Origin: Thermodesulfobacteriota bacterium
GTDB lineage: Bacteria; Desulfobacterota; Desulfobaccia; Desulfobaccales; 0-14-0-80-60-11
Assembly (NCBI GenBank): GCA_049322315.1
Contig: JBMORF010000060.1
Coordinates: 7,557 to 71,556 of the forward strand
Direction of reading: 5' to 3'
Length of the DNA: 64,000 nucleotides
Shown: positions 1,473 through 60,422 of the stretch, in pieces
Numbering within the stretch: position 1 is the stretch's first letter
Layout: each line of letters begins with the position of its first letter
The notes under the pieces: model-generated
What the model was told of the DNA's origin: nothing
The model's input: the letters and a program-made list of their open reading frames with translations, nothing else
Database searches by the model: none
Translations under genes and position numbers: made by a program

Positions 1473-1504
1473 TACTGGCTACTGGCCACTGACTACTGGC
1501 AACT
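1473..1504 (+). repeat. Heptamer array TACTGGC/CACTGAC (about 4.5 units)
   Basis: tactggc tactggc cactgac tactggc aact. Ends 4 nt from the GNAT stop codon (1509-1511, minus strand). Confidence 0.9.
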
Positions 1505-1508
1505 CCCC

Positions 1509-2078
1509 CTAAAACTCCGCCTCTTCTTTTTTCAGCACCGGCCGCATCATCAGGACTACGTCGTGGGTCACCCCGTCTTTGCGGATAAAGTAGTCGTCCA
1601 GGGTGGCCTTGATCTCAAACCCTTTGGACCGGAAGGCCTTGACGACCTTCTTATGGTCTGCCAGGACCTCCGCTTTCAGCCATTGTAGATTTTCTTTCAG
1701 GGCCAGGCTAAGGAGTTCTTCCAGCATCAAGGAACCCAACCCCAGGTTGCGGAAGGGCCGGGAGACGAAGATACGAATTTCGCCGATATGCTTGGCCGCA
1801 TGTTTGCCCCGGTGCAGGGTGGCGTCGGCAATGAGATGGTTGTTTTCCAGATCCACGGCCACCAGGGGCAATACCTTGTGGTAATCTATATGGTCGATCC
1901 AGTAATTGATGAGCTTCTGGTTTTTGACGTCCTGTTTCAGAAACCGGAGATCTTCGTCGGGGGCATCCTGGAATAAATGGATGAGGCCTTCCCGGTCCTG
2001 ATTGTTGAGGAAGCGGAACATCACCCGCTTGCCATTACTCAGGGTGACAAATTTGCGGTAAGCCACATAGTTGATCAT
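1509..2078 (-). CDS. GNAT family N-acetyltransferase
   Basis: 189-aa ORF with an acetyl-CoA binding-like segment (RPFRNLGLGSLMLEELLSLA). Confidence 0.7.
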   Translation of the reverse strand: MINYVAYRKFVTLSNGKRVMFRFLNNQDREGLIHLFQDAPDEDLRFLKQDVKNQKLINYWIDHIDYHKVLPLVAVDLENNHLIADATLHRGKHAAKHIGEIRIFVSRPFRNLGLGSLMLEELLSLALKENLQWLKAEVLADHKKVVKAFRSKGFEIKATLDDYFIRKDGVTHDVVLMMRPVLKKEEAEF

Positions 2079-2224
2079 ACCGGCCTCAGAAAAGGTATTT
2101 ACCTGCTCATGATACCGGGTTCAGCGGATTTGTCAAGGTAACCGCCGGGTTAATGGCCGGGATGGGGCCGCCTGGGCCAACCGCCATGATCGTTGCCTGG
2201 CTTTGATTTTCCCCGGAACTGCGA

Positions 2225-2345
2225 TTGGGAATAACCATGTGAAAATATACACAAAATAATTTTCTTCAAATGTTTTTTAACTAAATTTCAAGGGATAGCG
2301 ATTTTTGCCCTGATATTTTTTCCCTCCCTATGAAAATCGAGGGAA
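2225..2345. promoter_or_regulatory. AT-rich tract upstream of dnaA (candidate DUE/oriC element, weak)
   Basis: Only degenerate DnaA-box-like 9-mers were found: ATATACACA at 2245-2253 (1 mismatch to TTATNCACA), TGTGAAAAT at 2238-2246, and TCACCCACA near 2599-2607. Confidence 0.2.
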
Positions 2346-2653
2346 TTGCCAGCATAGGCGAGATTGAAAAATCAGGAAGAGCAGCCGTAGATTTCTCGAC
2401 AGCCGTTAAAGCCTAGAAATTGGCGGCTTTTATCTTGTTGAATTAATTGAGCAAAAAATTAGCCGGGATTTAAGCCGCCCCGTTACTTGGCCGCGGCCGG
2501 GGGGAACTCCTCCGGAGATCGAGGGGTGGCTAACCTCAATCTGGCGACACCTCCTTTGACCGGAATCGCCCCCAAGGGCTAATATCACCTTCACCGATTC
2601 ACCCACAACCCCGGCATTTACCCTGGAAACGCCCCTCACCCGGGAAGGAGACT

Positions 2654-5849: not shown

Positions 5850-5888
5850 AAAATTGGGAGAAGAGCCCGAGGAACAATTTGGGGAGAA

Positions 5889-5910
5889 GTTCAAGGTTCA
5901 AAGTTCAACG
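5889..5910 (+). repeat. Heptamer array GTTCAAR x3
   Basis: gttcaag gttcaaa gttcaac. Confidence 0.9.
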
Positions 5911-5932
5911 ACCTAATAATCCAGTACTTCTT

Positions 5933-5981
5933 CACTGACCACTGATCACTGCTTTCTGCTCACCGCTCACTGCTCACTCCC
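5933..5981 (+). repeat. Heptamer array CACTGNY x7, overlapping the pcm stop codon
   Basis: cactgac cactgat cactgct ttctgct caccgct cactgct cactccc. The pcm stop (tca, 5974-5976) lies inside the last units. Confidence 0.9.
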
Positions 5982-11369: not shown

Positions 11370-11422
11370 TGTAAAGGTAGCTCGGCTAAAAAAAAGTATA
11401 CAATTGAAGAAGTGGCTTGGGG

Positions 11423-11443
11423 TCCTGACCCCTGACCCCTGCA
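11423..11443 (+). repeat. Heptamer array YCCTGAC x3
   Basis: tcctgac ccctgac ccctgca, 3 nt from the mnmE stop (11447-11449, minus strand). Confidence 0.8.
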
Positions 11444-11446: not shown

Positions 11447-12829
11447 CTACTTTCCCAAGCAAAACTCCCCGAAAATGCGGTCCAGGACGTCGTCCCCCAC
11501 TTCCTGGCCGGTGATCTCCCCCAGTTCCCGGATGCCTTCCTGGAGGTCCAGGGCCACCAGTTCCCAGGGGGCCTCGCCTGCCAACAGGAGGTTCCGGGCC
11601 TGGCGCAGGTTATCCCGGCAGCGGCTCAGGTGCCGGTAATGCCGGGCCTGGGTGACGATTTCCCCGCTGGTGTTCAGGCCCCCTTTCAGGGTCAGGTCCA
11701 CGATCCGGGCCTTCAGGTCGTCAATGCCTGCCCCGGTGAGGGCGGAGATTTTGGTAATGGGGAGAGAAGTCGCCCCTTTTAACTCGGCCAGGGCCAGTTC
11801 CTGGGGCAAATCCACCTTATTGATGACCGCCAGGCCGACTCTGTCACCGATTTCCTCCAGATCTTGCCGGGCCTCCGGGGTTAAAGGCTGGCTGCCGTCC
11901 ACCAGGTAAAGCAAGACATCCGCCTGGGCCAGACGCTCCCGGGTGCGCTTGATGCCCAGTTCTTCCAGCCGATCCTGGGCCGGACGCAGCCCCGCGGTAT
12001 CGCTGAACCGCACCCTTACTCCCCCCAACGTGATAACCTCCTCCACCAGGTCCCGGGTGGTGCCGGGAATCTCGGTGACGATGGCCCGCTCCTGGGCCAG
12101 GAGGCGGTTGAGCAGGCTGGATTTGCCCACGTTCGGCGCGCCGGCGATCACCACCAGCAACCCTTCCTTAAGGAGGCGGCCTTCCCGGTAGGAGGCGGTG
12201 AGGGCCTCCAAAGCCTCAAGGGGTGGAACCAAATCCGCGGCCAAGGCTCCGGCCGGTATTTCGGCGGTCTCTTCCGGAAAATCCAGGGCCGCTTCCACCC
12301 GGGCCAGGTGATCCAGGAGGGTTTCCCGAAGCTCTTGCAACTCCCGGCCCAGATGCCCCTGCAGATGCTCTGCGGCCACCCGCACCCCCGCTTCGGTCCG
12401 GGCCTGGATTACTTCCAGGACCGCCTCCGCCTGGGTGAGATCGATGCGCCCGGAGAGAAAGGCCCTTAAGGTAAATTCCCCTGGCCGGGCCAGGCGCGCC
12501 CCGGAGGCCAGGGTCAGCTCCAGGAGGCGCTGCAACACCCCCCAGCCGGAATGGCAGTGAATTTCCACCACGTCTTCCCGGGTGTAAGTACGGGGCCCCC
12601 GCATCAAAGCAAGGAGCACCTCGTCGATGACCTCCTGGGAGGCGGGGTCGACGATCTGGCCTAGATAGAGATGGTGGGAGAGGAGTTGGGGCCGGGGGTG
12701 GCGGGGACGGAAGAGAGACCGGGCGATACCTGCGGCGTCCGGGCCGCTAAGGCGGACGATACCGATGCCCGCCTCACCCAGGGGGGTGGAGATGGCCGCA
12801 ATGGTGTCGGCCGCGTCTTTCGGCGTCAT
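11447..12829 (-). CDS. mnmE: tRNA modification GTPase MnmE (TrmE)
   Basis: G1 motif GAPNVGKSSLLN, DTAG, NKVD, and the C-terminal FCLGK tail. Confidence 0.95.
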   Translation of the reverse strand: MTPKDAADTIAAISTPLGEAGIGIVRLSGPDAAGIARSLFRPRHPRPQLLSHHLYLGQIVDPASQEVIDEVLLALMRGPRTYTREDVVEIHCHSGWGVLQRLLELTLASGARLARPGEFTLRAFLSGRIDLTQAEAVLEVIQARTEAGVRVAAEHLQGHLGRELQELRETLLDHLARVEAALDFPEETAEIPAGALAADLVPPLEALEALTASYREGRLLKEGLLVVIAGAPNVGKSSLLNRLLAQERAIVTEIPGTTRDLVEEVITLGGVRVRFSDTAGLRPAQDRLEELGIKRTRERLAQADVLLYLVDGSQPLTPEARQDLEEIGDRVGLAVINKVDLPQELALAELKGATSLPITKISALTGAGIDDLKARIVDLTLKGGLNTSGEIVTQARHYRHLSRCRDNLRQARNLLLAGEAPWELVALDLQEGIRELGEITGQEVGDDVLDRIFGEFCLGK

Positions 12830-15737: not shown

Positions 15738-15846
15738 AAGGCGATCCGCCTTGGTGAAACGGGCGGTCCCTGGGGAATCGGGGGACGGAAAAGAAACGGA
15801 GCCCCGGCTATGCTCTGGAGGACGGCTCAGGAGAGCTTCCCGGCCC

Positions 15847-15981
15847 TTAAACGGTCAGGCGCTTGCGGCCTCTGGCCCGGCGGCGTTTTAATACCCGCCG
15901 CCCCCCCCGGGTGCTCATGCGGCTCAAAAAGCCGTGGGTGCGCGCCCGGCGCAGATTGCTGGGTTGAAATGTACGTTTCAT
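15847..15981 (-). CDS. rpmH: 50S ribosomal protein L34
   Basis: Hand translation of the minus strand gives [44 protein letters not shown] then stop. Too short (44 aa) for the ORF track. Confidence 0.95.
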
Positions 15982-16059
15982 GCGCGATTATCCTTGAAAC
16001 CCAGATTTTTCCAAACTTTTTATAAAACATTTATCCCCCTGTTTGTCAAGGGTAAGAAA

Positions 16060-16087
16060 GTTCCATGTTCCAAGTTCCAAGTCAAAA
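16060..16087 (+). repeat. Heptamer array GTTCCAW x4
   Basis: gttccat gttccaa gttccaa gtcaaaa. A partially complementary arm AACTTGG..AACTTAA AACTTAT lies at 16174-16201. Confidence 0.8.
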
Positions 16088-16223
16088 GAAAATGATAGGC
16101 AACCTTGGCGGAAAAAAATTTGGAAATGCCATGGCTCACCCATTAAATATGCACAGTTCAAAGACCTTCCTTTAACTTGGTGCCAGGAACTTAAAACTTA
16201 TAAGAGCATTAAGCCTCTTTCCA

Positions 16224-16253
16224 TTGACAAGCTCAACAAAAATCTGATATGAC
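16224..16253 (+). promoter_or_regulatory. Putative sigma70 promoter of the TetR gene (TTGACA-N18-TATGAC)
   Basis: The -35 TTGACA is at 16224-16229 and a -10-like TATGAC at 16248-16253. This would give a near-leaderless transcript for the ATG at 16263. Confidence 0.35.
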
Positions 16254-16264
16254 CAAGTGGTCAT
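16249..16264. promoter_or_regulatory. Palindromic operator ATGACCAAGTGGTCAT (candidate TetR site)
   Basis: Perfect 7-bp arms overlapping the -10 element and start codon of the TetR gene. A near-identical palindrome lies at 16976-16991. Confidence 0.5.
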
Positions 16265-18109: not shown

Positions 18110-19161
18110 TGTCGGCAACCGCCTCCCTGGAAGCCCGGCTGGCCGCGGGCGCTCGTTTAGATAAAGAAGAAGCCCAGGGCCTTTGGGAACTGGACCTCCT
18201 CACCCTGGGGCAGGAGGCCGACCAGGCGCGGTGGCGCCTTAATCCCACGGACCTGGTCAGCTACGTGGTGGATCGCAATATCAATTACACCAATATCTGC
18301 ACCTCCGGCTGCCGCTTTTGCGCCTACTTCCGGGAACCCGGCTCCCCGGAGGGTTTTGTTTTGGATCCCGCGGCTTTAAGCCAGAAGCTGGAAGAACTTA
18401 AAGACCACGGCGGCACCGGCGTCCTCCTCCAGGGGGGCCTCAACCCGGACCTGCCCTTCGCCTATTATGAAGACCTGGTCCGGCAGATCAAGTGCTACGA
18501 CCTGGGGGTCCACGGCTTTTCCCCCCCGGAGATCGCCTTCATGTCCCGGCGCTTCGGCCTGTCCTTAAAGGAAGTGCTGGGCCGTCTCATAGAGGCCGGG
18601 CTCACCTCCATCCCCGGAGGCGGCGCCGAGGTCCTGGCGGACCGGGTGCGCCGCCAAATTTCCCCCCGGAAGGGCAGCAGCGGCGAGTGGCTGGAGGTCA
18701 TGGCCGCGGCTCATGAACTGGGGCTGAAGACCAGCGCCACCATGATGTTCGGCCATCTGGAGAGCAGGGCCGAGCGTCTGGAGCATCTTTTTAAAATCCG
18801 GGACCTCCAGGACCGCACCGGGGGGTTCCTCTCTTTCATCCCCTGGACCTTTCAGCCCGGCGCGACAGCCCTGGGAGGGGAGTCCCTGGGCGCGGTGGAG
18901 TATCTCCGCACCCTGGCCGTCTCCCGCCTGGTCCTGGACAACGTGCCCCATCTCCAGGTCTCCTGGGTCACCCAGGGCCCCAAGATCGCCCAGGTAGCCC
19001 TGAAATTCGGGGCCGACGACTTCGGCTCCACCATGCTGGAGGAAAACGTGGTGGCCGCCACCGGCGTGGGCTTCCGCCTGAGCCGGGCTGAAATCGACAC
19101 CCTCGTCCGCCAGGCAGGGTACGAACCCCGGGTCCGGGACCACCGGTATAATTTGCTGTAG
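18109..19161 (+). CDS. mqnC: Cyclic dehypoxanthinyl futalosine synthase MqnC (radical SAM)
   Basis: VVDRNINYTNICTSGCRFCAY. Paralog of the preceding gene, with a TGATG overlap. Confidence 0.75.
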   Translation: MSATASLEARLAAGARLDKEEAQGLWELDLLTLGQEADQARWRLNPTDLVSYVVDRNINYTNICTSGCRFCAYFREPGSPEGFVLDPAALSQKLEELKDHGGTGVLLQGGLNPDLPFAYYEDLVRQIKCYDLGVHGFSPPEIAFMSRRFGLSLKEVLGRLIEAGLTSIPGGGAEVLADRVRRQISPRKGSSGEWLEVMAAAHELGLKTSATMMFGHLESRAERLEHLFKIRDLQDRTGGFLSFIPWTFQPGATALGGESLGAVEYLRTLAVSRLVLDNVPHLQVSWVTQGPKIAQVALKFGADDFGSTMLEENVVAATGVGFRLSRAEIDTLVRQAGYEPRVRDHRYNLL

Positions 19162-19212
19162 CGAACCTTGTGTTCGCCCCCGATGCTGCTGGGCGAACAC
19201 AAGGTTCGCCCC
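19161..19212. repeat. REP-A inverted pair (GCGAACCTTGTGTTCGCCCC / GGGCGAACACAAGGTTCGCCCC)
   Basis: Two inverted copies about 19 nt long, 10 nt apart. The first base is the last base of the mqnC stop codon. Confidence 0.9.
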
Positions 19213-19294
19213 TACGATAATACAAATTAAGTGATTAGGGAAAAACGTAGGGCGGACGCTTCCCGCTTCCAAAACCTTGAACTACTAAAAACAG

Positions 19295-42399: not shown

Positions 42400-42477
42400 C
42401 CAGTAGCCAGTGGCCAGTGGCCAGTGGCCAGTGGCCAGTAATCAGTAATCAGTGATCAGTGATCAGTAATCAGTGAA
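42317..42477 (-). repeat. Phased heptamer array CAGTRGC / CAGTRAT, 23 units (161 bp)
   Basis: tagtgag cagcgag cagcaag cagtgag, then 13 units of cagtggc/cagtagc, then cagtaat x2, cagtgat x2, cagtaat, cagtgaa. It is the reverse complement of the 22376-22641 family. The bioB stop TAG (42397-42399) lies inside a unit. Confidence 0.95.
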
Positions 42478-42501
42478 AACCTAGTGATTTCGGCTTAATA
42501 A

Positions 42502-42537
42502 CCTTGAACCTTGAACCTTGAACCTTGAACCTTGAAC
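42502..42537 (-). repeat. Heptamer array CCTTGAA x5
   Basis: Reverse orientation of the GTTCAAG family. Confidence 0.95.
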
Positions 42538-43308: not shown

Positions 43309-43353
43309 TCAGTGATCACTGACTACTGATCACTGACTACTGGCCACTGAATC
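43305..43353 (+). repeat. Heptamer array CTGAYYA x7 filling the bioD-bioF spacer
   Basis: ctgatca gtgatca ctgacta ctgatca ctgacta ctggcca ctgaatc. Overlaps the bioD stop and ends at the bioF ATG. Confidence 0.95.
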
Positions 43354-44529: not shown

Positions 44530-45224
44530 AGACCTTAATTCTCCTCCACGGTTGGGGCGCCGACGGTTCCGTCTGGCAGAAACAGGCGTCGGTTTTCAAA
44601 GAGCAGTTTCAGGTGGAAACTCCCACCATCCCGGCCTGGGACCCGTCCTGGCTGGCGGCTTATCTGCAAAAATATTCCTTGCCGGATTGCCTCCTGGTGG
44701 GCTGGTCTTTAGGGGGCATGCTGTTGCTGGAGGCGCTGGCCCAGCAGCCCGCTCCTGTGGGTGGCCTGGTCCTGGTGGGCGTGGCCCCGGTCTTCTGCTC
44801 CCAGCCGGACCACCCCTGGGGCCAACCTCCGGCGGTGGTGCGGGCCATGCGCCGGGGGTTGAAGCATGATTCCCGGAAGGTATTGCAGGATTTTACCGGG
44901 AGTTGTTTGAGCCCGGGTGAAGAACCCTGGCACCAAGAAATTGTGGCTTTATTTACGGCCAGTAACGGCATCCATTTGGCTGACGGCCTGGATTATTTAT
45001 TGCACCGGGATTTGCGGCCATTGCTCCCCCACCTAAAGGCCCCCTGCACCATCATCCAGGGGGATCAGGACCGCATCGTCGATCCGGAGCAGGCCCGGTT
45101 TCTCCATGACCGGCTGCCTATTTCCAGCCTGCGCCTTTTGCCGGGTGCGGGCCACCTCCCTTTCTGGACCCAGGCGGAAGCGTTTGCGGCAATTTTGCAG
45201 GACCTGATTTTGGGGAGAAGATAG
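44526..45224 (+). CDS. bioH: Pimeloyl-ACP methyl ester esterase BioH
   Basis: LILLHGWG, nucleophile elbow GWSLGG, and GAGHLPF. ATGA overlap with bioF. Confidence 0.8.
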   Translation: MKTLILLHGWGADGSVWQKQASVFKEQFQVETPTIPAWDPSWLAAYLQKYSLPDCLLVGWSLGGMLLLEALAQQPAPVGGLVLVGVAPVFCSQPDHPWGQPPAVVRAMRRGLKHDSRKVLQDFTGSCLSPGEEPWHQEIVALFTASNGIHLADGLDYLLHRDLRPLLPHLKAPCTIIQGDQDRIVDPEQARFLHDRLPISSLRLLPGAGHLPFWTQAEAFAAILQDLILGRR

Positions 45225-45246
45225 GGGCGAACGGCCCTTTGCGCCC
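45224..45246. repeat. REP-A variant GGGGCGAACGGCCCTTTGCGCCC
   Basis: Begins at the last base of the bioH stop codon. Confidence 0.6.
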
Positions 45247-45270
45247 TCTTCTAAAAGACCATAGCGCACC

Positions 45271-46065: not shown

Positions 46066-46308
46066 CGTTTTTCGTTTTGGGTTTTTCGTTTTTCGTTGGG
46101 GTCTGCTATCGTTATCTTTGTGCAATTTTCTGCATACCTCTTAGCTTTTTTATTGGCAAAATCAATTAATATGTTAACATTATAAGGTTTAAGTAAGGTC
46201 GATGTTGATGGTATAGCAGCTTTTCAAACTTGTTCCTGCTAATCAAACTAAAGTAGATCACCAGATGCTTTTAACGAAAAACGAAAAACGGGAAACGGAA
46301 AACCGTAT
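46066..46308. repeat. CGTTTTT...ACGAAAA-armed intergenic element (copy 3)
   Basis: The left arm is cgttttt cgttttg ggttttt cgttttt cgttggg. The right arm is acgaaaa acgaaaa acgggaa acggaaa accgtat. The core is AT-rich. Starts 3 nt after the bioC stop. Confidence 0.9.
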
Positions 46309-46315: not shown

Positions 46316-48184
46316 ATGTCCGAATTACTCACAGGCCAGCCGGGTGAACGGCGGTTATTTCTGGGAAACGAGGCCATTGTTCGGGGGGCCCTGGAGGCCG
46401 GGGTCGCCCTGGTCGCCACCTACCCCGGCACCCCCGCCTCGGAGATCGGCGACCGCTGTTACGAAATCTCCCGGCAAACGGACCTCTACTTCGAATACTC
46501 CGTCAATGAAAAGGTGGCCCTGGAAGTGGCCGCGGGGGCGGCGGCCTCCGGCTGGCGCTCTCTGTGTTCCATGAAGCACGTGGGCCTCAACGTGGCCGCG
46601 GACACCCTGATGACCCTGGCCTATGTGGGCGTTAAAGCCGGGTTGGTCATCATCAGCGCCGACGACCCTTCTCTCTTTTCCAGCCAGAACGAACAAGATA
46701 ACCGCTACTACGCCAAAATGTCGGGTATCCCTATGCTGGAGCCGTCTTCCCCCCAGGAAGCCAAAGAGATGACCCGGGCCGCGTTCAAGATTTCCGAGGA
46801 GTTGCAACTGCCGGTGCTGCTCCGCACCACCACCCGCATTAACCATTCCCGGGCCCCGGTGACCTTGGGAGAACTGGCCCCCTTTCCCCGCCCCGGTTTT
46901 TTCCCCAAAGAGCCTTTCCAGAAAGTGATGGTTCCCATGGTGGCCCGCCAGGGCCATGTACGGCTGCTGGAGGCCCAGGCCCGGGCCGCGGACCAGGCCG
47001 AGGTTTCCGGCTTTAACCGGATATCTGGTCAAGGGACCTGGGGCATCGTCACCAGCGGCGTGAGCAGCAGCTACGTGGAAGACGCCTTGGCCGAACTGGG
47101 TCTGAAAGACCGGGTGTGGCTTCTCAAGCTGGGCTTCACCCACCCCCTGCCGGTAAATCTGATCACCAAGTTTCTGGCGCCTCTGGAAAAGGTGCTGGTG
47201 GTGGAGGAATTGGAGCCGTACCTGGAGGAGAGCCTCCGGGCCATCGCCCAGGCCCAGGGTTTGACCCTGCCCATCCAGGGGAAGAGCCCGGCCCTCTTTT
47301 CCCGGCTCTATGAGTATCATCCGGCCCTGGTGCGCCGGGTCACGGCCCGGTATTTCGGCGTGCCCGACAAGGTCACGGAGCCTCCGGAACCGGCGGCGAT
47401 TCTGGGACAGCCCCTGCCGGAGCGGCCCCCCAACCTCTGTCCGGGTTGCCCCCACCGTGCCATGTATTATTCCGTGAAAATAGCTTTAAAAGACTTGGGC
47501 GTCGAAGGGGTCTTCCCCACGGACATCGGCTGCTACACCCTGGGGCTGCTGCCGCCCCTTTCCATGGCCGATATCCTCATCTGTATGGGCTCTTCCATCA
47601 ACAACGCCGCGGGCATTTCCCGGGCCACGGAGCAGAAGGTGGTGGCCTTTATCGGTGATTCCACCTTTTTCCATGCCGGCCTGCCGGGCCTGACCAACGC
47701 CGTGCACCAAAACCATGATTTTCTCCTGGTCATCCTGGACAACGGCACTACGGCCATGACCGGCCACCAGCCGCATCCGGGGGTGTCCCTCACTCCCGTT
47801 GGCTACCCGTGCGAACACGTGCCCCTCAAGCGGGTGGTCAAGGCCCTGGGCGTGGAAAAACTCTGGGTGGTCAATCCCTTTAAATATCAGGAGGCCCTTA
47901 AGGCCACCAAAGAAGCGGTAAGCGCCACCGGGGTGCGGGTTCTTATTGCCGAGGCCCCTTGTCATCTGCATGTGCACCGGCTCCAGGGTAAGAAAAGCCA
48001 GGCCCGCTTCCAGGTCACCGACCAGTGCCGGGACTGCCGCCACTGTCTGGATTACTTCGGCTGTCCGGCTATGCAACTGAACGATAAGCCGGAAGGAGGC
48101 CGCATGCTCATCGACACCGACCTCTGCACCGGCTGCGCCTTCTGCGTCCAATGGTGCGAGGCCATCCGGCCGGTGAAGAAGTGA
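46316..48184 (+). CDS. iorA: Indolepyruvate ferredoxin oxidoreductase alpha subunit
   Basis: TPP motif GDSTFFHAG and a C-terminal 4Fe-4S domain (CRDCRHC, CTGCAFCVQWC). Confidence 0.9.
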   Translation: MSELLTGQPGERRLFLGNEAIVRGALEAGVALVATYPGTPASEIGDRCYEISRQTDLYFEYSVNEKVALEVAAGAAASGWRSLCSMKHVGLNVAADTLMTLAYVGVKAGLVIISADDPSLFSSQNEQDNRYYAKMSGIPMLEPSSPQEAKEMTRAAFKISEELQLPVLLRTTTRINHSRAPVTLGELAPFPRPGFFPKEPFQKVMVPMVARQGHVRLLEAQARAADQAEVSGFNRISGQGTWGIVTSGVSSSYVEDALAELGLKDRVWLLKLGFTHPLPVNLITKFLAPLEKVLVVEELEPYLEESLRAIAQAQGLTLPIQGKSPALFSRLYEYHPALVRRVTARYFGVPDKVTEPPEPAAILGQPLPERPPNLCPGCPHRAMYYSVKIALKDLGVEGVFPTDIGCYTLGLLPPLSMADILICMGSSINNAAGISRATEQKVVAFIGDSTFFHAGLPGLTNAVHQNHDFLLVILDNGTTAMTGHQPHPGVSLTPVGYPCEHVPLKRVVKALGVEKLWVVNPFKYQEALKATKEAVSATGVRVLIAEAPCHLHVHRLQGKKSQARFQVTDQCRDCRHCLDYFGCPAMQLNDKPEGGRMLIDTDLCTGCAFCVQWCEAIRPVKK

Positions 48185-48271
48185 GCGGTGAGCGGTGAGC
48201 GGTGAGCAGTAATAAGTAATAAGTAATAAGTAATAAGTAATAAGTAATAAGTAATCAGTTAATAGTGGGCA
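48181..48271 (+). repeat. Phased heptamer array GTGAGCG x4 then GTAATAA x6 and variants (13 units)
   Basis: The first unit contains the iorA stop TGA (48182-48184). Confidence 0.95.
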
Positions 48272-48315: not shown

Positions 48316-48343
48316 CCGGTGGCACAGGCGTCTCGCCTGTGCA
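48316..48343 (+). repeat. REP-B copy, 28 of 28 identical to the left REP of the RAYT
   Basis: CCGGTGGCACAGGCGTCTCGCCTGTGCA, identical to 37423-37450. Confidence 0.95.
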
Positions 48344-48362
48344 TGAAAAGCGAGGGACAGAA

Positions 48363-48887
48363 ATGATGAAGGGAGAATTTGATGAGATTGAATTGAAAAT
48401 TAAAGAAATACTTGAAAAGATTGCCCAGCAAGCCGTTGAAGATGGTGGTTATACCAATGAATGGTGGACAAAGAGAATTAAATCTGAACTTTGCATTTTA
48501 GGCCATGAGAAAGGGTATAGTGTCAGTGCAACAGGATGTGAGCGTCTAGAAAAAGCTCCAGAGACTGGAGAATGGCTGTTTGATCTGATTTGGGCAAAAG
48601 GCGAGGGTCATCCATGGATTTTTCGAGAAATGCCCTTAGCTAGGGAATGCGAATGGCCTTTAAATGAAAATGAAATATGGTGGGATTTTGAGAAACTTTT
48701 AGTAATTAGAAGTAAATATCGTATTTTTATTTTTGATAAAAGAAAAAGAGAGGATATTGAGAGACTTTTTAATGAATTTAATGATGCAATTCATGGTTTC
48801 GAGAGTTCACAAAAGGGAGACAGGTATCTTTTAGCCGGTTTTTCTTGCGAAGATAATAATTTCAAATTTCGACAGGTAATCGCCTAA
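48363..48887 (+). CDS. Hypothetical protein (174 aa), AT-rich orphan between iorA and iorB
   Basis: Start at ATG 48363 with RBS GAGGGA (the track start lies inside the REP). No family recognised. A weak PD-(D/E)xK-like pattern is present (EWLFDLIW...ECEW...DFEKLL). Confidence 0.5.
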   Translation: MMKGEFDEIELKIKEILEKIAQQAVEDGGYTNEWWTKRIKSELCILGHEKGYSVSATGCERLEKAPETGEWLFDLIWAKGEGHPWIFREMPLARECEWPLNENEIWWDFEKLLVIRSKYRIFIFDKRKREDIERLFNEFNDAIHGFESSQKGDRYLLAGFSCEDNNFKFRQVIA

Positions 48888-48893: not shown

Positions 48894-49562
48894 ATGAGCG
48901 CCACGGAAAACGGAAAACGGAAAACGGAAAACGCCACCCTCCGGCTCCGCATCTTCCTCACCGGCGTGGGCGGCCAGGGGACCCTCCTGGCCAGCCGGGT
49001 CTTGGGGGAGGCGGGGATGGAGGCCGGGTTTGCTCCCCTGGTGAGCGAAACCCACGGCATGGCCCAACGGGGCGGCATCGTCGTCTCCACCGTGGTCCTG
49101 GGGGAGGTGAAAAGCCCCATTATTTCTCCGGGGGAGGCGGATGTGCTCCTGGGTTTCGAGGCCCTGGAGACCTTCCGGGCTTTAAGCTATTGCCATGACC
49201 GCAGCCTGGTGATCGCCAACACCGCGGCCGTGGCCCCTTATCCGGTGGCCATCGGCCAGGCCCAGTATCCCCCGGTGGCCCACCTCCTGGAACTTATAAG
49301 CGAACACGTGGGCGGGCTTTTGGCTTTTGACGCCGGCGCCCTGGCCCGGCAGGCCGGCAGCGCCCTGGCGGTAAACATGGTCCTCCTGGGAGCCCTGGCC
49401 GCCACCCCTTACCTGCCCTTTAGCCTGGAGGACCTGCGGCACATACTTCGGACCCGCACCAATCCGAAATTCCTGGAGGCCAACCTGAACGCCTTCCAAG
49501 CCGGCGTGGACGCCGCCCAGGATTCTCAATATTGGCTACGCCGTCTTGCGTCCTGGCATTGA
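48894..49562 (+). CDS. iorB: Indolepyruvate ferredoxin oxidoreductase beta subunit
   Basis: IFLTGVGGQGTLLASRVL. The N-terminal 13 codons or so are repeat-encoded. Confidence 0.85.
   Translation: MSATENGKRKTENATLRLRIFLTGVGGQGTLLASRVLGEAGMEAGFAPLVSETHGMAQRGGIVVSTVVLGEVKSPIISPGEADVLLGFEALETFRALSYCHDRSLVIANTAAVAPYPVAIGQAQYPPVAHLLELISEHVGGLLAFDAGALARQAGSALAVNMVLLGALAATPYLPFSLEDLRHILRTRTNPKFLEANLNAFQAGVDAAQDSQYWLRRLASWH
48903..48937 (+). repeat. Heptamer array ACGGAAA x4 plus ACGCCAC inside the iorB 5' end
   Basis: Encodes ENGKRKTEN. Confidence 0.9.
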
Positions 49563-50073: not shown

Positions 50074-50178
50074 GCTATTAGTAATAAGTGATAAGTAATA
50101 AGTGATCAATTATTAATAAATTCTTATGACTTATGACTTATGACTTATGACTTATGACTTATTACTTATTGCTGTCTA
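50074..50178. repeat. Inverted heptamer arms GTRATAA x4 / CTTATGA x5 plus CTTATTR (15 phased units)
   Basis: Starts 3 nt after the archease stop and ends 2 nt before the rtcB ATG. Confidence 0.95.
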
Positions 50179-51629: not shown

Positions 51630-51656
51630 TTCAAAGTTCAAGGTTAGGTCTGCAAG
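51629..51656 (+). repeat. Heptamer arm GTTCAAR x2 plus degenerate units
   Basis: gttcaaa gttcaag gttaggt ctgcaag. The first base is the last base of the rtcB stop. Confidence 0.85.
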
Positions 51657-51691
51657 CTGAGTTTTTAGATAGGAAGAGAAAGAAGGCAAGC

Positions 51692-51994
51692 ATGCCAATA
51701 ATCGAACTACCACATGGAAATGCCTCGTTCGATTCTGATGATTTAAAAGGATATATTAGAGCAACAGGTAGGAACTACATCATACAAGGACAGCAAAATT
51801 GTAGTAGAAAAAATCATACTAAGCCTCAAAGCTTGGACTGTTGGCTAAAAGGTAATTGTACTCAATATTCTGATACTAAACAAGCAGTAAATGAAGTAAT
51901 ATATGGTCTTATAAACACTGGAGAATTTAGGGAAGGAAGATATATCTGTCCTGATACTGGAAGATGGGCCAAAGGAATCCAAATAATAGATTAA
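51692..51994 (+). CDS. Hypothetical protein (100 aa), AT-rich orphan
   Basis: ATG with upstream GAAGG. No family recognised. Four Cys residues. Confidence 0.4.
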   Translation: MPIIELPHGNASFDSDDLKGYIRATGRNYIIQGQQNCSRKNHTKPQSLDCWLKGNCTQYSDTKQAVNEVIYGLINTGEFREGRYICPDTGRWAKGIQIID

Positions 51995-52010
51995 ACTATA
52001 GCAGCACTAA

Positions 52011-52092
52011 CCTTGAACCTTGAACCTTGAACCTTGAACTTCTCGACAGCAGTCAAAAGCTGACCGCTGATAGCTGAAAGCTGATAGCTAAT
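52011..52092. repeat. Heptamer arm CCTTGAA x4 followed by CTGAYMG-type units (12 phased units)
   Basis: ccttgaa x4, cttctcg acagcag tcaaaag ctgaccg ctgatag ctgaaag ctgatag ctaatat. Ends at the ffh ATG. Confidence 0.9.
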
Positions 52093-53430
52093 ATGTTCGA
52101 CCGACTCTCCGACAAATTAGCCGCGGTCTTCAAAAAACTCAAAGGCCATGGCAAGCTCAACGAGGCCCAGGTAAACGAGGCCCTCCGGGAGGTGCGGCTC
52201 GCCCTGTTGGAGGCCGACGTCCATTACAAGGTGACCAAGAGCTTCATTGAGTCCATTAAGGCCAGGGCCGTGGGCGAAGAGGTGATGCGCTCCTTAACCC
52301 CGGCCCAGCAGGTGATAAAAATCGTCCACGAGGAGTTGACCCAGCTTTTGGGGGGCGAATCCCCCCGTCTGGACTTAGGCGGCAAGCCCCCGGTGGCCCT
52401 GATGCTGGTGGGCCTCCAGGGCTCCGGTAAAACCACCACCGCGGGCAAGTTGGCCCGGCGCCTTAAAAGCCAGGGCCGCCAGCCTTATTTAGTGCCCGCG
52501 GACGTCCAGCGGCCCGCGGCCATCGAGCAATTGAAACGTTTGGGCGCCGATCTGGGGGTGGAGGTCTATCCCTCCCGGACTGATCAGAACCCGGTGGCCA
52601 TCGCCGACGCCGCCATGGAAGCGGCCTACACCGCGGGCTATGATACCGTCATCCTGGACACCGCCGGTCGCCTCCATATCGATGCGCCCTTAATGGCAGA
52701 ACTTAAGGCCATCAGGGAAAAGACGGAGCCCCAGGAAATCCTCCTGGTGGCCGACGCCATGACAGGCCAGGACGCAGTGCAGGTGGCCCAAAAATTTCAC
52801 GACCTGCTAAAGCTCACCGGGGTCATCCTCACCAAGATGGAGGGCGACGCCCGGGGCGGCGCGGCCCTGTCCATGCGGGCGGTGATCGGCAAACCCATCA
52901 AGTTTCTGGGGGTGGGGGAAAAATTGGACGCCCTGGAGGTCTTCCACCCGGATCGCCTCAGCTCCCGCATCCTGGGCATGGGCGACGTCCTCACCCTCAT
53001 CGAGAAGGCCCAGGAGACCTTCGACGCCGGCCAGGCCCAAGCCCTGGAAAAAAAGCTACGAAAAGAGGGCTTTACCCTGGAAGATTTCCGGGACCAATTG
53101 CGGCAGATCAAAAAGATGGGTACAATGGAACAATTACTCAGCATGATCCCGGGCATCGGCAAGAACAAGGCCCTGAAAGGGATGCAACCCGACGAACGGG
53201 AACTGAAACGGGTGGAGGCCATCATCAACTCCATGACCCCCAAAGAAAGGTCCGACCACCAGATCATCGACGGCAGCCGGCGTCGGCGCATCGCTCAAGG
53301 CAGCGGCACCACCGTCCAAGACGTCAATCGCTTGCTAAAAAATTTCGGCATGACCCAAAAAATGATTAAACAAATGACCCAGGGTGGCAAAAAGGGCAAA
53401 CCCCCCTTCTTCCCGGGGAAATTTTTTTAA
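52093..53430 (+). CDS. ffh: Signal recognition particle protein Ffh
   Basis: GLQGSGKTTTAGKLA, DTAGR, and a Met-rich M domain. Confidence 0.95.
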   Translation: MFDRLSDKLAAVFKKLKGHGKLNEAQVNEALREVRLALLEADVHYKVTKSFIESIKARAVGEEVMRSLTPAQQVIKIVHEELTQLLGGESPRLDLGGKPPVALMLVGLQGSGKTTTAGKLARRLKSQGRQPYLVPADVQRPAAIEQLKRLGADLGVEVYPSRTDQNPVAIADAAMEAAYTAGYDTVILDTAGRLHIDAPLMAELKAIREKTEPQEILLVADAMTGQDAVQVAQKFHDLLKLTGVILTKMEGDARGGAALSMRAVIGKPIKFLGVGEKLDALEVFHPDRLSSRILGMGDVLTLIEKAQETFDAGQAQALEKKLRKEGFTLEDFRDQLRQIKKMGTMEQLLSMIPGIGKNKALKGMQPDERELKRVEAIINSMTPKERSDHQIIDGSRRRRIAQGSGTTVQDVNRLLKNFGMTQKMIKQMTQGGKKGKPPFFPGKFF

Positions 53431-56314: not shown

Positions 56315-56480
56315 CGTTTTTTGTTTTTGGTTTTTCGTTTTTCGTGAAAAGAATCTAAAAATTTCGACAAACTGCACATAACCTTCGATTCGTTTGCAAG
56401 TGAAGAGGACATGCATTGAATTAATTAAGCTTGTCATTAATACTTATCCTTTACGAAAAACGAAAAACGAAAAACGGTCT
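56315..56480. repeat. CGTTTTT...ACGAAAA-armed intergenic element (copy 4)
   Basis: The left arm is cgttttt tgttttt ggttttt cgttttt cgtgaaa. The right arm is acgaaaa x3 then acggtct. The core is AT-rich. Starts 3 nt after the rnhB stop. Confidence 0.9.
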
Positions 56481-57754: not shown

Positions 57755-57762
57755 AAAAGAAA

Positions 57763-57794
57763 GGGGCGAACCTTGTGTTCGCCCAGCATCCAGG
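57763..57794 (+). repeat. REP-A copy GGGGCGAACCTTGTGTTCGCCC(AGCATCCAGG)
   Basis: 22-mer identical to 33422-33443. Confidence 0.9.
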
Positions 57795-57845
57795 GAGAAT
57801 ACAAGGTTAGCCACATAACTCCCCAGTTTCTTTTGAAATTCGCAT

Positions 57846-58154
57846 ATGTCCAAGATATCCGCGTCGCCCAAAAAGTCGAAAATCCCGGTGGTGGTCAAGG
57901 AATTGTGGGTGGAAAACCGTCTGGGACTCCATGCCCGCCCCGCTGCCCAGGTAGTGCGGTTGGCCCAAAAATTTGACGGAGACCTTATCCTGGAAAAAGA
58001 CGGGAGCCGGGCCAACGCCCGGGATCTCCTGGCCCTCCTGGCCTTAAGCTGCCCCCAGGGGACTCGCCTGGTTTTGCGGGCCTCCGGGCCCCAGGCCCAG
58101 GAAGCCGCGGTCGCCCTGGTTTCCCTCTTTGCCAGCAAGTTTGGAGAGAAATGA
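57846..58154 (+). CDS. ptsH: Phosphocarrier protein HPr
   Basis: NRLGLHARPAA active-site His region. Confidence 0.85.
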   Translation: MSKISASPKKSKIPVVVKELWVENRLGLHARPAAQVVRLAQKFDGDLILEKDGSRANARDLLALLALSCPQGTRLVLRASGPQAQEAAVALVSLFASKFGEK

Positions 58155-59938
58155 CGAGTCAGAATCGGGTCCTCCAGGGTATCCCCGCCTCCCCCGGTAT
58201 TGTCTTGGGCCGCGCCAAGGTGCTGGCCGACAAAGTGGAGGCTCAGCCCTACTATTGCCTGCTGTATGCCCCGGAAGAGATCGCTGAAGAGGTGGACCGT
58301 TTCCTGAAGGCCGTAGAGCAGGCGGAAGTGGACCTCATATCCCTAAAGGAATCCCTGTCTCTGGAGTATCAGGAACATGCCCACCTCCTGGACCTGCAAA
58401 TCCTGATGCTCAAAGAGCGGATGATCTTCGAGGAAACCCAGCGGCTCATCCGGGAAGAGCGCTACAATGCCGAGTGGGCCCTGTTCCAGGCCTGGCAAAA
58501 GGTGATGGACCTCTTTAAGGGGATCGGCGATCCGTATATCAAGGGCCGTATTCAAGACGTGGAGGAAGTTTACCGCCGCCTGCAAGCCATTCTCGCCGGT
58601 AAAGAAGCCTTGAGCCTTTCTGCCCACGAGCCGGTGATTATCGTGGCCCGGGACCTGTCTCCTGCCGAGGCTACCCAGATGACCCGCTCCCAGGTGCTGG
58701 GGTTCATCACGGAACGGGGCGGGCGGACTTCTCACACCGCCATTATCGCCCAATCCCTGGAAATCCCCGCCGTGGTGGGGGTGGACTTTGCCACCAGGGA
58801 GATCTCCTCTGGAGATACAGTGATCCTGGACGGGTTAAAGGGTCAGATCATCTTGGACCCGGACGAGGCGGTGAGTCTTTCCTATCAGGAGCGGCAGGAG
58901 GAATTTGAGGCCTTCAAGGAGGAAGTGGCCCAATCAAGCGGTTTGGCCGCCACCACTATCGATGAATACCCCACGAAGATCCTGGCTAACATCGAATTGC
59001 CCGAAGAGGTGGAGCTGGGCCTCAAGTATGGCGCGGATGGGGTGGGGCTTTACCGCACCGAGTTCCTCTATCTCCGGCTACGGCACCTGCCCACCGAAGA
59101 AGAATTGTTTGAAGATTACCGGCGGGTGGTGGAGGCCATGGCCCCTAAAGTAGTGACCATCCGTACCCTGGATATCGGCGGTGACAAGTTTCTCTCGCCT
59201 TTGGAATACGCGCCGGAAATGAACCCGGCCCTGGGGCTCCGGGCCATCCGTTTCTGCCTCAAAGAAACCACTATCTTCCGCACCCAATTAAAAGCCATCC
59301 TCCGGGCTTCCGCCTACGGACAGGTCCGGGTTATGTTTCCTCTCATCTCCAATGTGGGGGAACTCAGAGAGGCCCGGAGGCTCCTGGAGGAGGTGAAGCA
59401 AGACCTGGAGCAAGAAGGCCTGCCCTTTGACCCCCGCATGCCGGTGGGCGCCATGATCGAAGTGCCGGCCGCGGTCACCCTGGCCCATCTCCTGGCCCAA
59501 TATGCAGACTTCTTTAGCATTGGCACCAATGACCTGATACAATATGCCTTGGCCATTGACCGGGTCAACAAACAGGTGGCCGACATGTATCAGCCGCTGC
59601 ACCCGGCGGTGATCCGCATGATCCGGGAGGTGGTCCACGCCGCCCGGGTGGCCCGGATTCCAGTGGCTATGTGCGGAGAGATGGCCGGAGACCCCCTCTA
59701 TATCCCGGTGCTTTTGGGTTTGGGAGTGGCGGAATTATCCATGAACGCCATGTCTATACCGGTCGCCAAGCACGTTATCCGCATGATTACGATTGAGGCG
59801 GCCCGGAGGATCGCCCGCCAGGCCCTGCGGCTGATCACGGTGAAGGAAATCAATGACTACGTGGCCCAGGAGATGAATCGCCGCTTTCCCGGAATTTTCC
59901 GGTTCGGTCGCACCCTGGCCGCCAACCATGAGTTATGA
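58151..59938 (+). CDS. ptsI: Phosphoenolpyruvate-protein phosphotransferase (PTS enzyme I)
   Basis: GGRTSHTAIIAQSLEIPAVVG and a PEP-utilising TIM barrel (GTNDLIQY). Confidence 0.95.
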   Translation: MTSQNRVLQGIPASPGIVLGRAKVLADKVEAQPYYCLLYAPEEIAEEVDRFLKAVEQAEVDLISLKESLSLEYQEHAHLLDLQILMLKERMIFEETQRLIREERYNAEWALFQAWQKVMDLFKGIGDPYIKGRIQDVEEVYRRLQAILAGKEALSLSAHEPVIIVARDLSPAEATQMTRSQVLGFITERGGRTSHTAIIAQSLEIPAVVGVDFATREISSGDTVILDGLKGQIILDPDEAVSLSYQERQEEFEAFKEEVAQSSGLAATTIDEYPTKILANIELPEEVELGLKYGADGVGLYRTEFLYLRLRHLPTEEELFEDYRRVVEAMAPKVVTIRTLDIGGDKFLSPLEYAPEMNPALGLRAIRFCLKETTIFRTQLKAILRASAYGQVRVMFPLISNVGELREARRLLEEVKQDLEQEGLPFDPRMPVGAMIEVPAAVTLAHLLAQYADFFSIGTNDLIQYALAIDRVNKQVADMYQPLHPAVIRMIREVVHAARVARIPVAMCGEMAGDPLYIPVLLGLGVAELSMNAMSIPVAKHVIRMITIEAARRIARQALRLITVKEINDYVAQEMNRRFPGIFRFGRTLAANHEL

Positions 59939-60405
59939 AAAACGAGAAAGAAGAAAATCTGAAGATCATCTGCCGTAACCGCAAGGCTTATTTCGACTAT
60001 GCCATCGACGCCTTTTATGAGGCCGGGATGGTCTTGCAGGGCACCGAAGTCAAGGCCCTGCGACAGGGCCGGGCCAACATCAATGATGCCTACGCCCGCT
60101 TTCGCGACGGTGAGATCTACCTGTATAACGCCCATATCAGCCCTTACTCCCATGCCGCGCTGGACAGCCATAACCCGGAGCGGCCCCGAAAACTGCTGCT
60201 CCACCGGTGGGAGATGCGACGCCTCCTGGGAAAACTTCAGGAACGGGGCTATACTCTTATTCCTTTAAGGCTGTATTTCAGAAATGAACATGCTAAAGTG
60301 GAACTGGGCTTGGCCAAGGGTAAGAAAAAGGTGGATAAACGGGAAGCCATCCGCCGCCGGGAAGAACAGCGGGAAATAGAGCGGGCCCGGAAACGGCGGA
60401 AGTGA
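59935..60405 (+). CDS. smpB: SsrA-binding protein SmpB
   Basis: NRKAYFDY, GTEVKALR, KLLLHRWE. ATGA overlap with ptsI. Confidence 0.95.
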   Translation: MKNEKEENLKIICRNRKAYFDYAIDAFYEAGMVLQGTEVKALRQGRANINDAYARFRDGEIYLYNAHISPYSHAALDSHNPERPRKLLLHRWEMRRLLGKLQERGYTLIPLRLYFRNEHAKVELGLAKGKKKVDKREAIRRREEQREIERARKRRK

Positions 60406-60422
60406 GCAGCAAGCAGTAGCAA
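60402..60422 (+). repeat. Short heptamer array GTGAGCA GCAAGCA GTAGCAA
   Basis: The first unit contains the smpB stop TGA. Confidence 0.7.

Follow-up and report, generated by a model that had tools for sequence, protein, structure and literature searches.

We analysed a 64,000-nucleotide (nt) stretch of DNA, here called the window, from a Thermodesulfobacteriota bacterium of the order Desulfobaccales (contig JBMORF010000060.1, positions 7,557 to 71,556), in which tandem arrays of seven-nucleotide units lie mostly between genes. An earlier note on this DNA had proposed that these heptamer arrays start at stop codons and act as stop pads for translation. We find that the arrays mark both boundaries of genes, not stops in particular, that their sequence follows the direction of the adjoining gene, and that two arrays sharing a spacer are commonly reverse complements. 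We are highly confident in this anatomical description and in the assignment of the arrays to a published kind of repeat; for their role, we tentatively favour a helix that would couple translation of neighbouring genes.

The gene list of the window was built with a codon-usage model and then corrected by Pfam, and rpmH (15981-15847, minus strand) was added. Pfam matches comprise GNAT, PCMT, MnmE, a MqnA-type protein, a UbiX-type flavoprotein, Liv permease and ATPases, BioB, BioD, BioF, a BioC-like methyltransferase, IorA, IorB, archease, RtcB, Ffh, RNase HII and SmpB, in agreement with the gene names of the earlier note. IorA of the window (46316-48184) is 68-89% identical to IorA of about 44 loci from metagenome-assembled genomes (MAGs) labelled Desulfobacca, Desulfobaccales or 'Deltaproteobacteria', and about 50-57% identical to IorA of other orders.

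Tandem repetition at this locus has essentially one period. A match scan of the window found 16 period-7 arrays and no more than 1 of any other period from 4 to 12, and Tandem Repeats Finder (TRF) found about 29 arrays of period 7, 14 or 21. Loci of Desulfobaccales hold 1-5 period-7 arrays apiece and almost none at other periods; those of other Desulfobacterota orders hold no period-7 arrays, with two exceptions. The heptamer excess is a trait of the clade, Desulfobaccales-wide. For counts we pooled the window with 44 Desulfobaccales loci (788 kb), taking TRF arrays of period 7, 14 or 21 (194 in all). Their lengths peak at 4-5 units, with a median of 31 nt and an interquartile range of 25-34, and fall sharply above 5 units; TRF thresholds, which pass over arrays of fewer than about 3 copies, cut off the low end of the distribution. 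Arrays may appear collapsed or shortened in MAG assemblies, and probably break or collapse such assemblies in turn.

Intergenic arrays account for 130 of the 194. True heptamer arrays within coding sequences (CDSs) occur at extreme N- or C-termini, such as the C-termini of bioB and iorA and the N-terminus of iorB, and the 'interior' TRF matches in CDSs are mostly 21-nt coding periodicities. Several array-bearing spacers lie within evident operons (bioB-bioD-bioF, iorA-iorB, archease-rtcB, liv). The unit flavours (AGTGATC, CGTTTTT, GTTCAAG, AGTAATA and others) have no G-tracts; only the array at 11419-11441 (CAGGGGT) is G-tract-like. Stop-side arrays begin 0-6 nt past the upstream stop, at times supplying that stop, and start-side arrays end 0-12 nt ahead of the downstream start or occasionally lie just inside it. 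The arrays of the window are as follows.

1473-1504, minus strand: stop-side (AGCCAGT/AGTCAGT)x4.6 in the GNAT sense, 4 nt past the stop of the GNAT gene (1509-2078, minus strand)
5887-5978, no strand assigned: convergent spacer with two non-complementary arrays (TRF and spacer reading), AAGTTCA x3.1 at 5887-5908, 37 nt past the stop of the plus-strand gene, and TCACTGC x6.7 (GCAGTGA in the pcm sense) at 5932-5978, overlapping the pcm stop at 5974-5976
11419-11441, minus strand: (CAGGGGT)x3 in the mnmE sense, 5 nt past the mnmE stop (11447-11449) and shortly before gidB
16058-16201, no strand assigned: divergent rpmH/TetR spacer with an array pair, AAGTTCC x3.6 at 16058-16082 and its partner, a weak complementary AACTTGG/AACTTAA run at about 16174-16201
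22334-22368, plus strand: weak GCAGTGA-type array x5, 2 nt past the mqnA stop
22376-22643, plus strand: 38-copy CTGGCTA/CTGACTA array of opposite polarity, following the mqnA GCAGTGA-type array
24716-24796, plus strand: inverted pair filling the spacer from ubiX to the next gene, hairpin -36.4 kcal/mol, z -7.0; (GTTCAAG)x4.4 lies 0-3 nt past the TGA and (AACTTTG)x4.6 ends 10 nt before ATG 24807
29741-29896, plus strand: pair GTTTTTG x2.9 / AACGMAA x4.6, loop 101 nt, from 6 nt past the livM-type stop to 21 nt before ATG 29918
33298-33584, plus strand: pair CGTTTTW x3.9 / GAAAAAC x5 with a hairpin like those of repetitive extragenic palindromic (REP) elements in the loop, 4 nt past the liv ATPase stop; the second arm reaches ATG 33584
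38756-38794, plus strand: start-side AAAAGCT x5.6, ending 15 nt before ATG 38810; octamer array CGCAAAGG x3.9 at 38634-38664 in the same spacer
42321-42476, plus strand: composite array, GAGCAGC then CAGTGGC/CAGTAGC then CAGTAAT/CAGTGAT, running into the bioB 3' end and supplying the bioB TAG stop (42397-42399)
42500-42537, plus strand: start-side AACCTTG x5.4 before bioD, following the bioB composite array
43304-43350, plus strand: array filling the entire 45-nt bioD-bioF spacer; one TCAGTGA unit overlaps the TGA, and (ACTGAYC)x5 ends 3 nt before ATG 43354
46066-46303, plus strand: pair CGTTTTT x4.6 / AACGAAA x4.4, 175-nt loop with promoter-like matches, from 3 nt past the bioC-like stop to 12 nt before the iorA ATG
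48181-48264, plus strand: GTGAGCG x3.9 over the iorA TGA, then AGTAATA x8
48903-48933, plus strand: (ACGGAAA)x4.4, translated as iorB codons 4-13
50080-50169, plus strand: pair AGTRATA x3.9 / CTTATGA x6.7, hairpin -29.1 kcal/mol, z -5.3, from 3-9 nt past the archease stop to about 8-11 nt before the probable rtcB ATG 50181
51630-52093 (whole feature), plus strand: TTCAAAG x2.5 directly past the rtcB TAG; its approximate complement AACCTTG x4.4 at 52009-52039, about 360 nt off; and AGCTGAT x5.1 at 52058-52093 (plus strand), reaching the ffh ATG
56315-56476, plus strand: pair CGTTTTT x4.4 / ACGAAAA x3.4, from 3 nt past the rnhB stop to 21 nt before the next open reading frame (ORF)
60403-60422, plus strand: weak run of GCAGCAA/GCAGTAG, about 2.5 units, over the smpB TGA

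Octamer arrays, the one in this list and those of GCGTCTTT-type upstream of ffh in four relatives (L002-L005), lie in spacers of the heptamer kind and are the only notable non-heptamer tandem arrays.

Arrays at stops and starts

We compared the distances between arrays and gene ends with a chance model that places each array uniformly inside its own spacer (5000 trials for the pooled set). In the window alone, 9 arrays lie within 6 nt of a stop where 2.7 are expected (p ~1e-4). In the pooled set 38 do so, against a null mean of 9.1 and a null maximum of 20. Start codons are abutted equally, with 37 pooled arrays within 10 nt of a start (null mean 13.4, null maximum 26). The 44 loci have orthologous spacers in common, which makes the pooled counts non-independent, and the window-only tests serve as the independent check. 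An array overlaps the 3' end of a gene, placing the stop codon within it, in 17 pooled cases. The claim that arrays systematically start at stop codons thus captured a real enrichment and missed its counterpart at starts.

Arrays are tied non-randomly to CDS ends, and their distances to stops differ from random placement in spacers. Pooled densities per kb are 0.94 in co-directional, 0.77 in convergent and 0.36 in divergent spacers, so that arrays at divergent gene pairs are rarer than at co-directional ones, not equally common. Nor are arrays confined to stop codons, as the heptamer pair between the divergent rpmH and TetR genes shows.

Reading the window spacer by spacer, we recovered the gaps between stop and array listed in the earlier note with small differences: 4 nt after the GNAT gene, 2 nt after mqnA, 0-3 nt after ubiX, 5-6 nt after the livM-type permease, about 3-5 nt (a weak nCAGnnn array) and 4-5 nt after the liv ATPases, and 3 nt after both the bioC-like methyltransferase gene and rnhB. 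Arrays overlap the ends of pcm, bioD, iorA, rtcB (2.5 units only) and smpB (2.5 units), and the bioB TAG lies within its array. Two gaps of 3 nt, after mnmE and archease, hold only when a degenerate first unit is counted; by TRF they are 5 and 9 nt, respectively. Several of these arrays are short and degenerate, the weak ones (2.5-5 degenerate units) being those of mqnA, the first liv ATPase, rtcB and smpB.

The earlier note had also seen stop triplets built into many units and suggested frame-independent stop pads, or some other tie to termination. Its arithmetic (7 mod 3 = 1) and its named triplets are correct, but CTTGAAC is the form of the opposite, start-side arm, and the stop-side GTTCAAG has no stop triplet. 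For this idea speak the 12 of 40 stop-side arrays that close all three frames, the 17 gene stops lying within arrays, and a slight excess of stop triplets in stop-side units (21/40 against 15.8 in unit shuffles, p=0.04). However, 16 of the 40 stop-side arrays close no reading frame, and adjacency within 6 nt is alike for arrays without a stop triplet (19/56) and with one (19/45). Stop-free units such as CGTTTTT, GTTTTTG, GTTCAAG, AGTTGCC and AGTTTCG adjoin stops; all four CGTTTTT/GTTTTTG-type stop-side arrays of the window lie 3-6 nt from stops and lack a stop triplet. Stop triplets are commoner in start-side units (24/44, with 13.6 expected), perhaps in part by ascertainment, since an ORF call can swallow an array ahead of the start if that array is stop-free, and start-adjacent arrays are as frequent as stop-adjacent ones. 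A stop pad also neither predicts reverse-complementary array pairs within spacers nor explains their complementarity. Stop triplets are present because the AGT-R-R and ACTGA cores of the units contain them, and a stop codon inside an array fits growth up to or slightly into the CDS better than a termination device. The stop-pad idea is largely refuted in this analysis, and we consider it very improbable.

Genes that closely follow a start-side array rarely show the motif of a ribosome-binding site (RBS). Among genes with a start-side array within 12 nt, 1 of 39 has a strict Shine-Dalgarno (SD) motif, compared with 86 of 460 others (p=0.007), and the linker from array to ATG is short and AU-rich. 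Arrays at gene ends mislead ORF callers, as at the bioB C-terminus (42321-42399), the iorB N-terminus and the rtcB start. In rtcB, the CTTATGA array contains the first in-frame ATG (50154); judged by alignment with relatives, ATG 50181 is likely the true start.

Polarity, pairing and conservation

Arrays distinguish the two ends of a gene. Read in gene sense, pooled stop-side units contain AGT in 23 of 40 and ACT in 1 of 40, and start-side units contain ACT in 23 of 44 and AGT in 0 of 44. The stop-side form is G/T-rich, (AGTNNNN)n or (NGTTTTN)n, and the start-side form A/C-rich, (NNNNACT)n or (AACGAAA)n. In the window alone, G+T-rich arrays make up 14 of 16 on the stop side and 1 of 12 on the start side (p=5e-5). 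Spacers with a single array keep the polarity (13/17 vs 2/25).

This polarity bears on whether the arrays are DNA-level elements, that is, sites for a lineage-specific protein that reads a 7-bp register, or cruciform or non-B structures affecting replication, recombination or local stability. An inverted pair is the same on both strands, so by this reasoning pair polarity needs no transcription. With a conserved 3-nt core (AGT/ACT) and four free positions in a strict 7-nt register, the arrays resemble a recognition code, one pair lies in the divergent, putatively origin-proximal rpmH spacer, and Rehm et al. 2015 (PMC4692102) report higher local genomic stability near such repeats. Nevertheless, single arrays still follow gene-relative polarity, arrays are depleted in divergent (promoter) spacers, and no candidate binding protein was identified; a DNA-level role is distinctly unlikely. 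The rpmH spacer coincides with a strand switch at 15738-16256, with rpmH-rnpA-yidC-like-mnmE-gidB on the minus strand and the TetR gene (16257) onward on the plus strand. This part of the window may lie near the replication origin, although it has no dnaA and GC skew is not decisive.

Two arrays in one spacer tend to be able to pair. The arms are reverse-complementary in 19 of 28 two-array spacers, compared with 14% of cross-spacer pairings, and direct-repeat arms occur in none of the 28. Complementary pairs of the window include GTTCAAG/AACTTTG (24716-24796), AGTAATA/CTTATGA (50080/50123) and the CGTTTTT/AACGAAA type, present four times (29741/29862, 33298/33538, 46066/46273, 56315/56453). 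Folded arms form long helices that start 0-6 nt past the stop and end a few nt before the start, with hairpin z-scores of -5.3, -7.0, -8.9 and -5.3. In whole-spacer folds, a helix of 20-35 bp juxtaposes the upstream stop with the downstream start. Variant units are mirrored in order between the arms in one relative (L028) and at 24716-24796 of the window.

REP elements, with bacterial interspersed mosaic elements (BIMEs), and phage T7 intercistronic sites give the segments of an operon independent stabilities. The heptamer helices could do likewise, as RNase III-type sites or as protection of 3' ends. The 20-35 bp helices with high z-scores in operon intercistronic spacers would suit such a role, as would the lack of predicted intrinsic terminators in array spacers and the report that Xanthomonas transcripts start or stop at repeats capable of forming G-quadruplexes (G4s) more than at control repeats (PMC4692102). 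RNA processing leaves the single arrays, the SD replacement and the tight apposition to starts unexplained, however, and a mismatch every 7 bp is in our judgement not obviously a good RNase III substrate. We regard it as unlikely.

We also rejected two other structures. Arrays do not act as intrinsic terminators as far as prediction goes: no GC-rich stem with a U-tract was predicted in array-bearing spacers. Clear terminators were predicted in array-free spacers, at 26720-26741 and 27824-27843. These follow two adjacent genes of about 280 aa, 25862-26695 and 26929-27798, which are probably duplicated. Their near-identical 3' flanks (26696-26745, 27799-27848) hold no heptamer arrays, and the terminators past 26695 and 27798 read AAGGCGGCC-TTTT-GGCCGCCTT followed by TTTTT. 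A panhandle between a 5' array and a 3' array of the same transcription unit fits, by inspection, only 29862...33325; pairs consistently span spacers and not genes. A search of the window against Rfam gave no family at or above its gathering score.

Inverted arrays that flank variable DNA, in a window that also holds a Y1 (IS200-like) transposase gene, recall a foldback-type mobile element or miniature inverted-repeat transposable element (MITE) with heptamer arrays as terminal inverted repeats, inserting beside stops. We rejected this candidate, which we regard as extremely improbable. The four CGTTTTT/ACGAAAA loops of the window are mutually dissimilar, and loops of same-family arms resemble each other only between orthologous spacers; the arms adjoin both CDS ends without target-site duplications, and their positions are orthologous across species. 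Separately, a MITE-like palindromic element, TGTCATCCTGAGCGAAGCGAAGGATC...TTCGCTTCCTCAGAATGACA, is inserted between the heptamer arms of the archease-rtcB spacer in two relatives (L004 and L018).

The expectation that arrays keep their position and vary in flavour among relatives was borne out at the iorA stop junction and in the archease-rtcB spacer. Orthologous iorA genes have (G/T)CAGT(G/A)N arrays that begin on or over the stop codon in at least 9 relatives; copy numbers and variants differ, and in three (L004, L039, L042) the array extends into the last codons. In the archease-rtcB spacer, arrays occur in about 20 of 30 species; flavours differ, and the arms of each spacer stay complementary (AGTAATA/CTTATGA, AGTGATC/ACTGATT, AGTTGCC/AACTGGC, AGTAGCC/TACTGGC, AGTAGTC/CAACTGA). 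Other species have the start-side arm alone, or GC-rich hairpin elements in place of arrays. Likewise, the start-side array of ffh is conserved in position and differs in flavour. A 31-nt ACCGAAA/ACGGAAA array lies 9-27 nt past the iorB ATG in more than 20 species; the position at codons 4-13 and the 31-nt length are kept in at least 12 species, and in array-free relatives iorB begins directly at a LRIFLTGVGGQG motif. Positions persist across species with only 55-80% protein identity, and arrays are both gained and lost.

Two ORFs that lie inside array-bracketed spacers and have no Pfam match are candidate genes: 48339-48887, between iorA and iorB, which one relative (L004) matches with a homologue of 62% identity in the equivalent position, and 51692-51994, between rtcB and ffh.

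The history of these spacers provides the main rival to translational coupling, namely that the arrays are a neutral by-product. Slippage-prone heptamers would be seeded in gaps between cistrons that were tiny at first, and so abut both stop and start; inverted duplication and template switching would keep the arms alike, purifying selection alone would set boundaries and polarity, and later insertions (REPs, MITEs, small ORFs) would enter the loop and spread the arms. Accordingly, the iorA-iorB junction is overlapping or about 8-10 nt in array-free relatives (L007, L030, L034, L036) and 100-500 nt in array-bearing ones, the minimal forms are simple spacer-filling hairpins (43304-43350, 24716-24796, and in L028 and L033), and loops hold REP hairpins and unrelated sequence. 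Gain and loss among relatives, intrusion into C- and N-termini, arm mismatches that are mostly uncompensated transversions, and the lack of a function in the literature after several studies point the same way. Under such a history, a null that is uniform within the present spacer is too lenient. Neutrality alone does not explain the strict gene-relative polarity of single arrays (13/17 vs 2/25), SD loss before presumably expressed and partly essential genes (ffh, rtcB, bioF), the narrow size mode of 4-5 units, or positional persistence at 55-80% protein identity. We judge it possible, though somewhat unlikely.

A proposed translational coupling

The reading that we tentatively favour is a stop-to-start bridging helix that couples translation. 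Arrays would arise and change by replication slippage, and the arms would be kept alike by arm-to-arm template switching, by selection for pairing, or by both. They would act in mRNA, as parts of operon transcripts. The A/C-rich array would replace the SD region as an unstructured leader for ribosome loading, and the G/U-rich arm right past the upstream stop would mask that leader. A ribosome terminating at the upstream stop would reach the base of the helix and open it, and initiation on the downstream cistron would thus be coupled to upstream translation across a long spacer. The AGT-R-R/ACTGA cores would bring stop triplets along as a by-product and not as the function. The coupling step itself is purely our inference.

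Several observations weigh against this proposal. Only one array was detected in 74 of 102 array-bearing spacers, and iorA has a GCAGTGA array where iorB has a non-complementary ACCGAAA array, so pairing cannot be the whole story. The hairpin z-score of the 38-copy array at 22376-22643 is a non-significant -1.05. If pairing were in RNA, G-U wobble might favour the sense strand; sense and antisense have 10 and 5 mismatches, respectively, and the sense strand is more stable in 13 of 20 pairs. The arm mismatches are mostly transversions. At termination, a ribosome would unwind no more of a 30-bp helix than its first 1-2 units. Promoter-like sequences lie in some loops (46153-46180), and the two arms may therefore not always share one transcript. 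Finally, the pooled counts carry the non-independence of shared orthologous spacers, and gene calls in the loci come from our own codon model, with start codons that are uncertain.

A broader version of the coupling reading seems doubtful to us. It holds that the bridging helix is a widespread intercistronic device common to the heptamers of Xanthomonas, cyanobacteria (short tandemly repeated repetitive, STRR, sequences), Beggiatoaceae and Desulfobaccales, in which about 4 units would make a ribosome-sized footprint of about 30 nt and not a G-quadruplex.

Other elements of the window differ from the arrays. The arrays, tandem 7-mers of many sequences, are not of REP type, that is, near-identical dispersed GC-rich palindromes. 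A REP-like family, GGGGCGAACCTTGTGTTCGCCC, is present at 19161-19215, 33421-33442, 45224-45250 and 57762-57784, once as an inverted dimer; one copy lies within the loop of a heptamer pair. As the earlier note had stated, the hairpins at 19161 and 45224 each share their first base with the end of a stop codon, here TAG. At 37376-37935, an IS200-like Y1 transposase ORF that resembles REP-associated tyrosine transposases (RAYTs) (Pfam Y1_Tnp, E 1.5e-6) is followed by a hairpin, GCACAGGCGAGACGCCTGTGC (37913). This hairpin recurs as GGCACAGGCGTCTCGCCTGTGC in the iorA-iorB spacer of the window (48320-48341) and of many relatives. The transposase and the GCACAGGCGAGACGCCTGTGC/GGCACAGGCGTCTCGCCTGTGC hairpins may constitute a REP/RAYT system.

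Between the liv ABC ATPase genes (29918-30643 and 32463-33293) lies a candidate two-gene anti-phage system at 30705-32494, HEC-01A (AAA_21 ATPase, E 8e-147) and HEC-01B (DUF4276, E 4e-78), which looks inserted into the liv operon. A 95-aa ORF at 34992-35279 matches only the C-terminal part of an alpha/beta-hydrolase (Abhydrolase_1 173-245) and is probably a gene fragment or pseudogene.

Known heptamer repeats

The closest published counterparts are the GGGAATC repeats of Xanthomonas and the GGGGA(C/T)T repeats of Nostoc (Rehm et al. 2015, PLoS One, PMC4692102). These are enriched between genes, form 70-75 inverted pairs per genome, have a four-unit mode, keep their position in related species with variable length and sequence, and are mostly transcribed; no function was identified. 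The Desulfobaccales arrays share with them period 7, intergenic location, a preference for co-directional over divergent spacers, gene-relative polarity, inverted pairs and a mode of about 4 units. In contrast, Desulfobaccales units are not G-tracts (GGGNATC) and form no G-quadruplex, yet have the same 4-5-unit mode; they come in many flavours that share only an AGT/ACT core, in an anaerobic sulfate-reducer lineage, and lie 0-6 nt from gene ends, tighter than the 0-50 bp bins of that paper. G-tract units define a G4 subclass and not the positional class. Since the same positional rules and size mode occur without G4 potential, the G4 explanation for Xanthomonas and Nostoc is weakened as a general rationale.

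Start-side arrays resemble the directly repeated TAACTGA units that MacGregor 2015 (Front Microbiol, PMC4679880) described in marine Beggiatoaceae, some cyanobacteria and Bacteroidetes. Those repeats end a few nt before start codons, usually with no RBS, and reversed arrays occasionally lie just past stops; forward units stop all frames, so they overlap ORF ends only briefly, and strains differ by indels in 7-nt steps. According to literature cited there and by Rehm et al. (PMC4692102), slippage is favoured at 7 nt, and Mrazek 2007, as cited in PMC4679880, describes heptamers as the dominant class of long simple sequence repeats in many bacterial genomes. Both groups have an ACTGA-containing heptamer ending near the start without a canonical RBS. 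However, the start-side units of Desulfobaccales are AACTGAC, ACTGATT, ACTGACC and AACTGAA, together with the unrelated AACGAAA and AACCTTG, and exact TAACTGA is not a unit. BOGUAY has essentially one unit and one inverted repeat, whereas Desulfobaccales have many families, common inverted pairs, and stop-side arrays as common as start-side ones.

Within the former Deltaproteobacteria, according to Aklujkar et al. 2009 (PMC2700814), Geobacter metallireducens has multicopy elements of 4-5 tandem heptanucleotides (GGACCGG; MTYCTGA). Some are paired on opposite strands, and the elements are interpreted as sites for regulators or as RNA elements. They are likewise tandem heptanucleotides of a related host, but their families are fixed in sequence and length, and no edge rule at stops or starts is described for them. 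A literature search on Desulfobacca tandem repeats found nothing relevant.

Heptanucleotide arrays in cyanobacteria have been known since 1990, when Mazel et al. reportedly described the STRR units CCCCAGT, TTGGTCA and CAACAGT. According to Pradhan et al. 2022 (bioRxiv 10.1101/2022.06.06.494920), heptamer repeats of Nostoc PCC 7120 lie near start codons, and deleting the repeats alters regulator-dependent reporter activity by a mechanism not known. The likeness consists in CAGT/ACTG-type or TTCAAAA-type heptamers near starts or promoters; the phylum differs, and the text consulted reports neither bracketing of stops and starts nor covariation of arms.

Placement beside stops is also a property of REPs. 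In E. coli, REP/BIME elements are said (Liang, Rudd and Deutscher, Mol Cell, 2015) to lie within about 15 nt of stops inside operons, where REPs reportedly were proposed to interfere with the terminating ribosome and so tune expression. The REP-like hairpins at 19161 and 45224 are placed likewise. Unlike heptamer arrays, REPs are GC-rich imperfect palindromes linked to RAYTs, with no period-7 tandem and no start-side partner.

Together, these comparisons show that the Desulfobaccales arrays belong to the kind that Xanthomonas and Nostoc have as GGGAATC repeats, and Beggiatoaceae and cyanobacteria as TAACTGA/STRR repeats, and that their layout was already published. New here are the non-G4 flavours with an AGT/ACT core, the 0-6 nt distances and the covariation of arms at orthologous spacers. 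Desulfobaccales add an independent lineage, which points to the 7-nt register, gene-relative polarity and arm complementarity, and the flavours at orthologous spacers are natural covariation data that suggest a testable model of stop-to-start bridging and SD-independent initiation.

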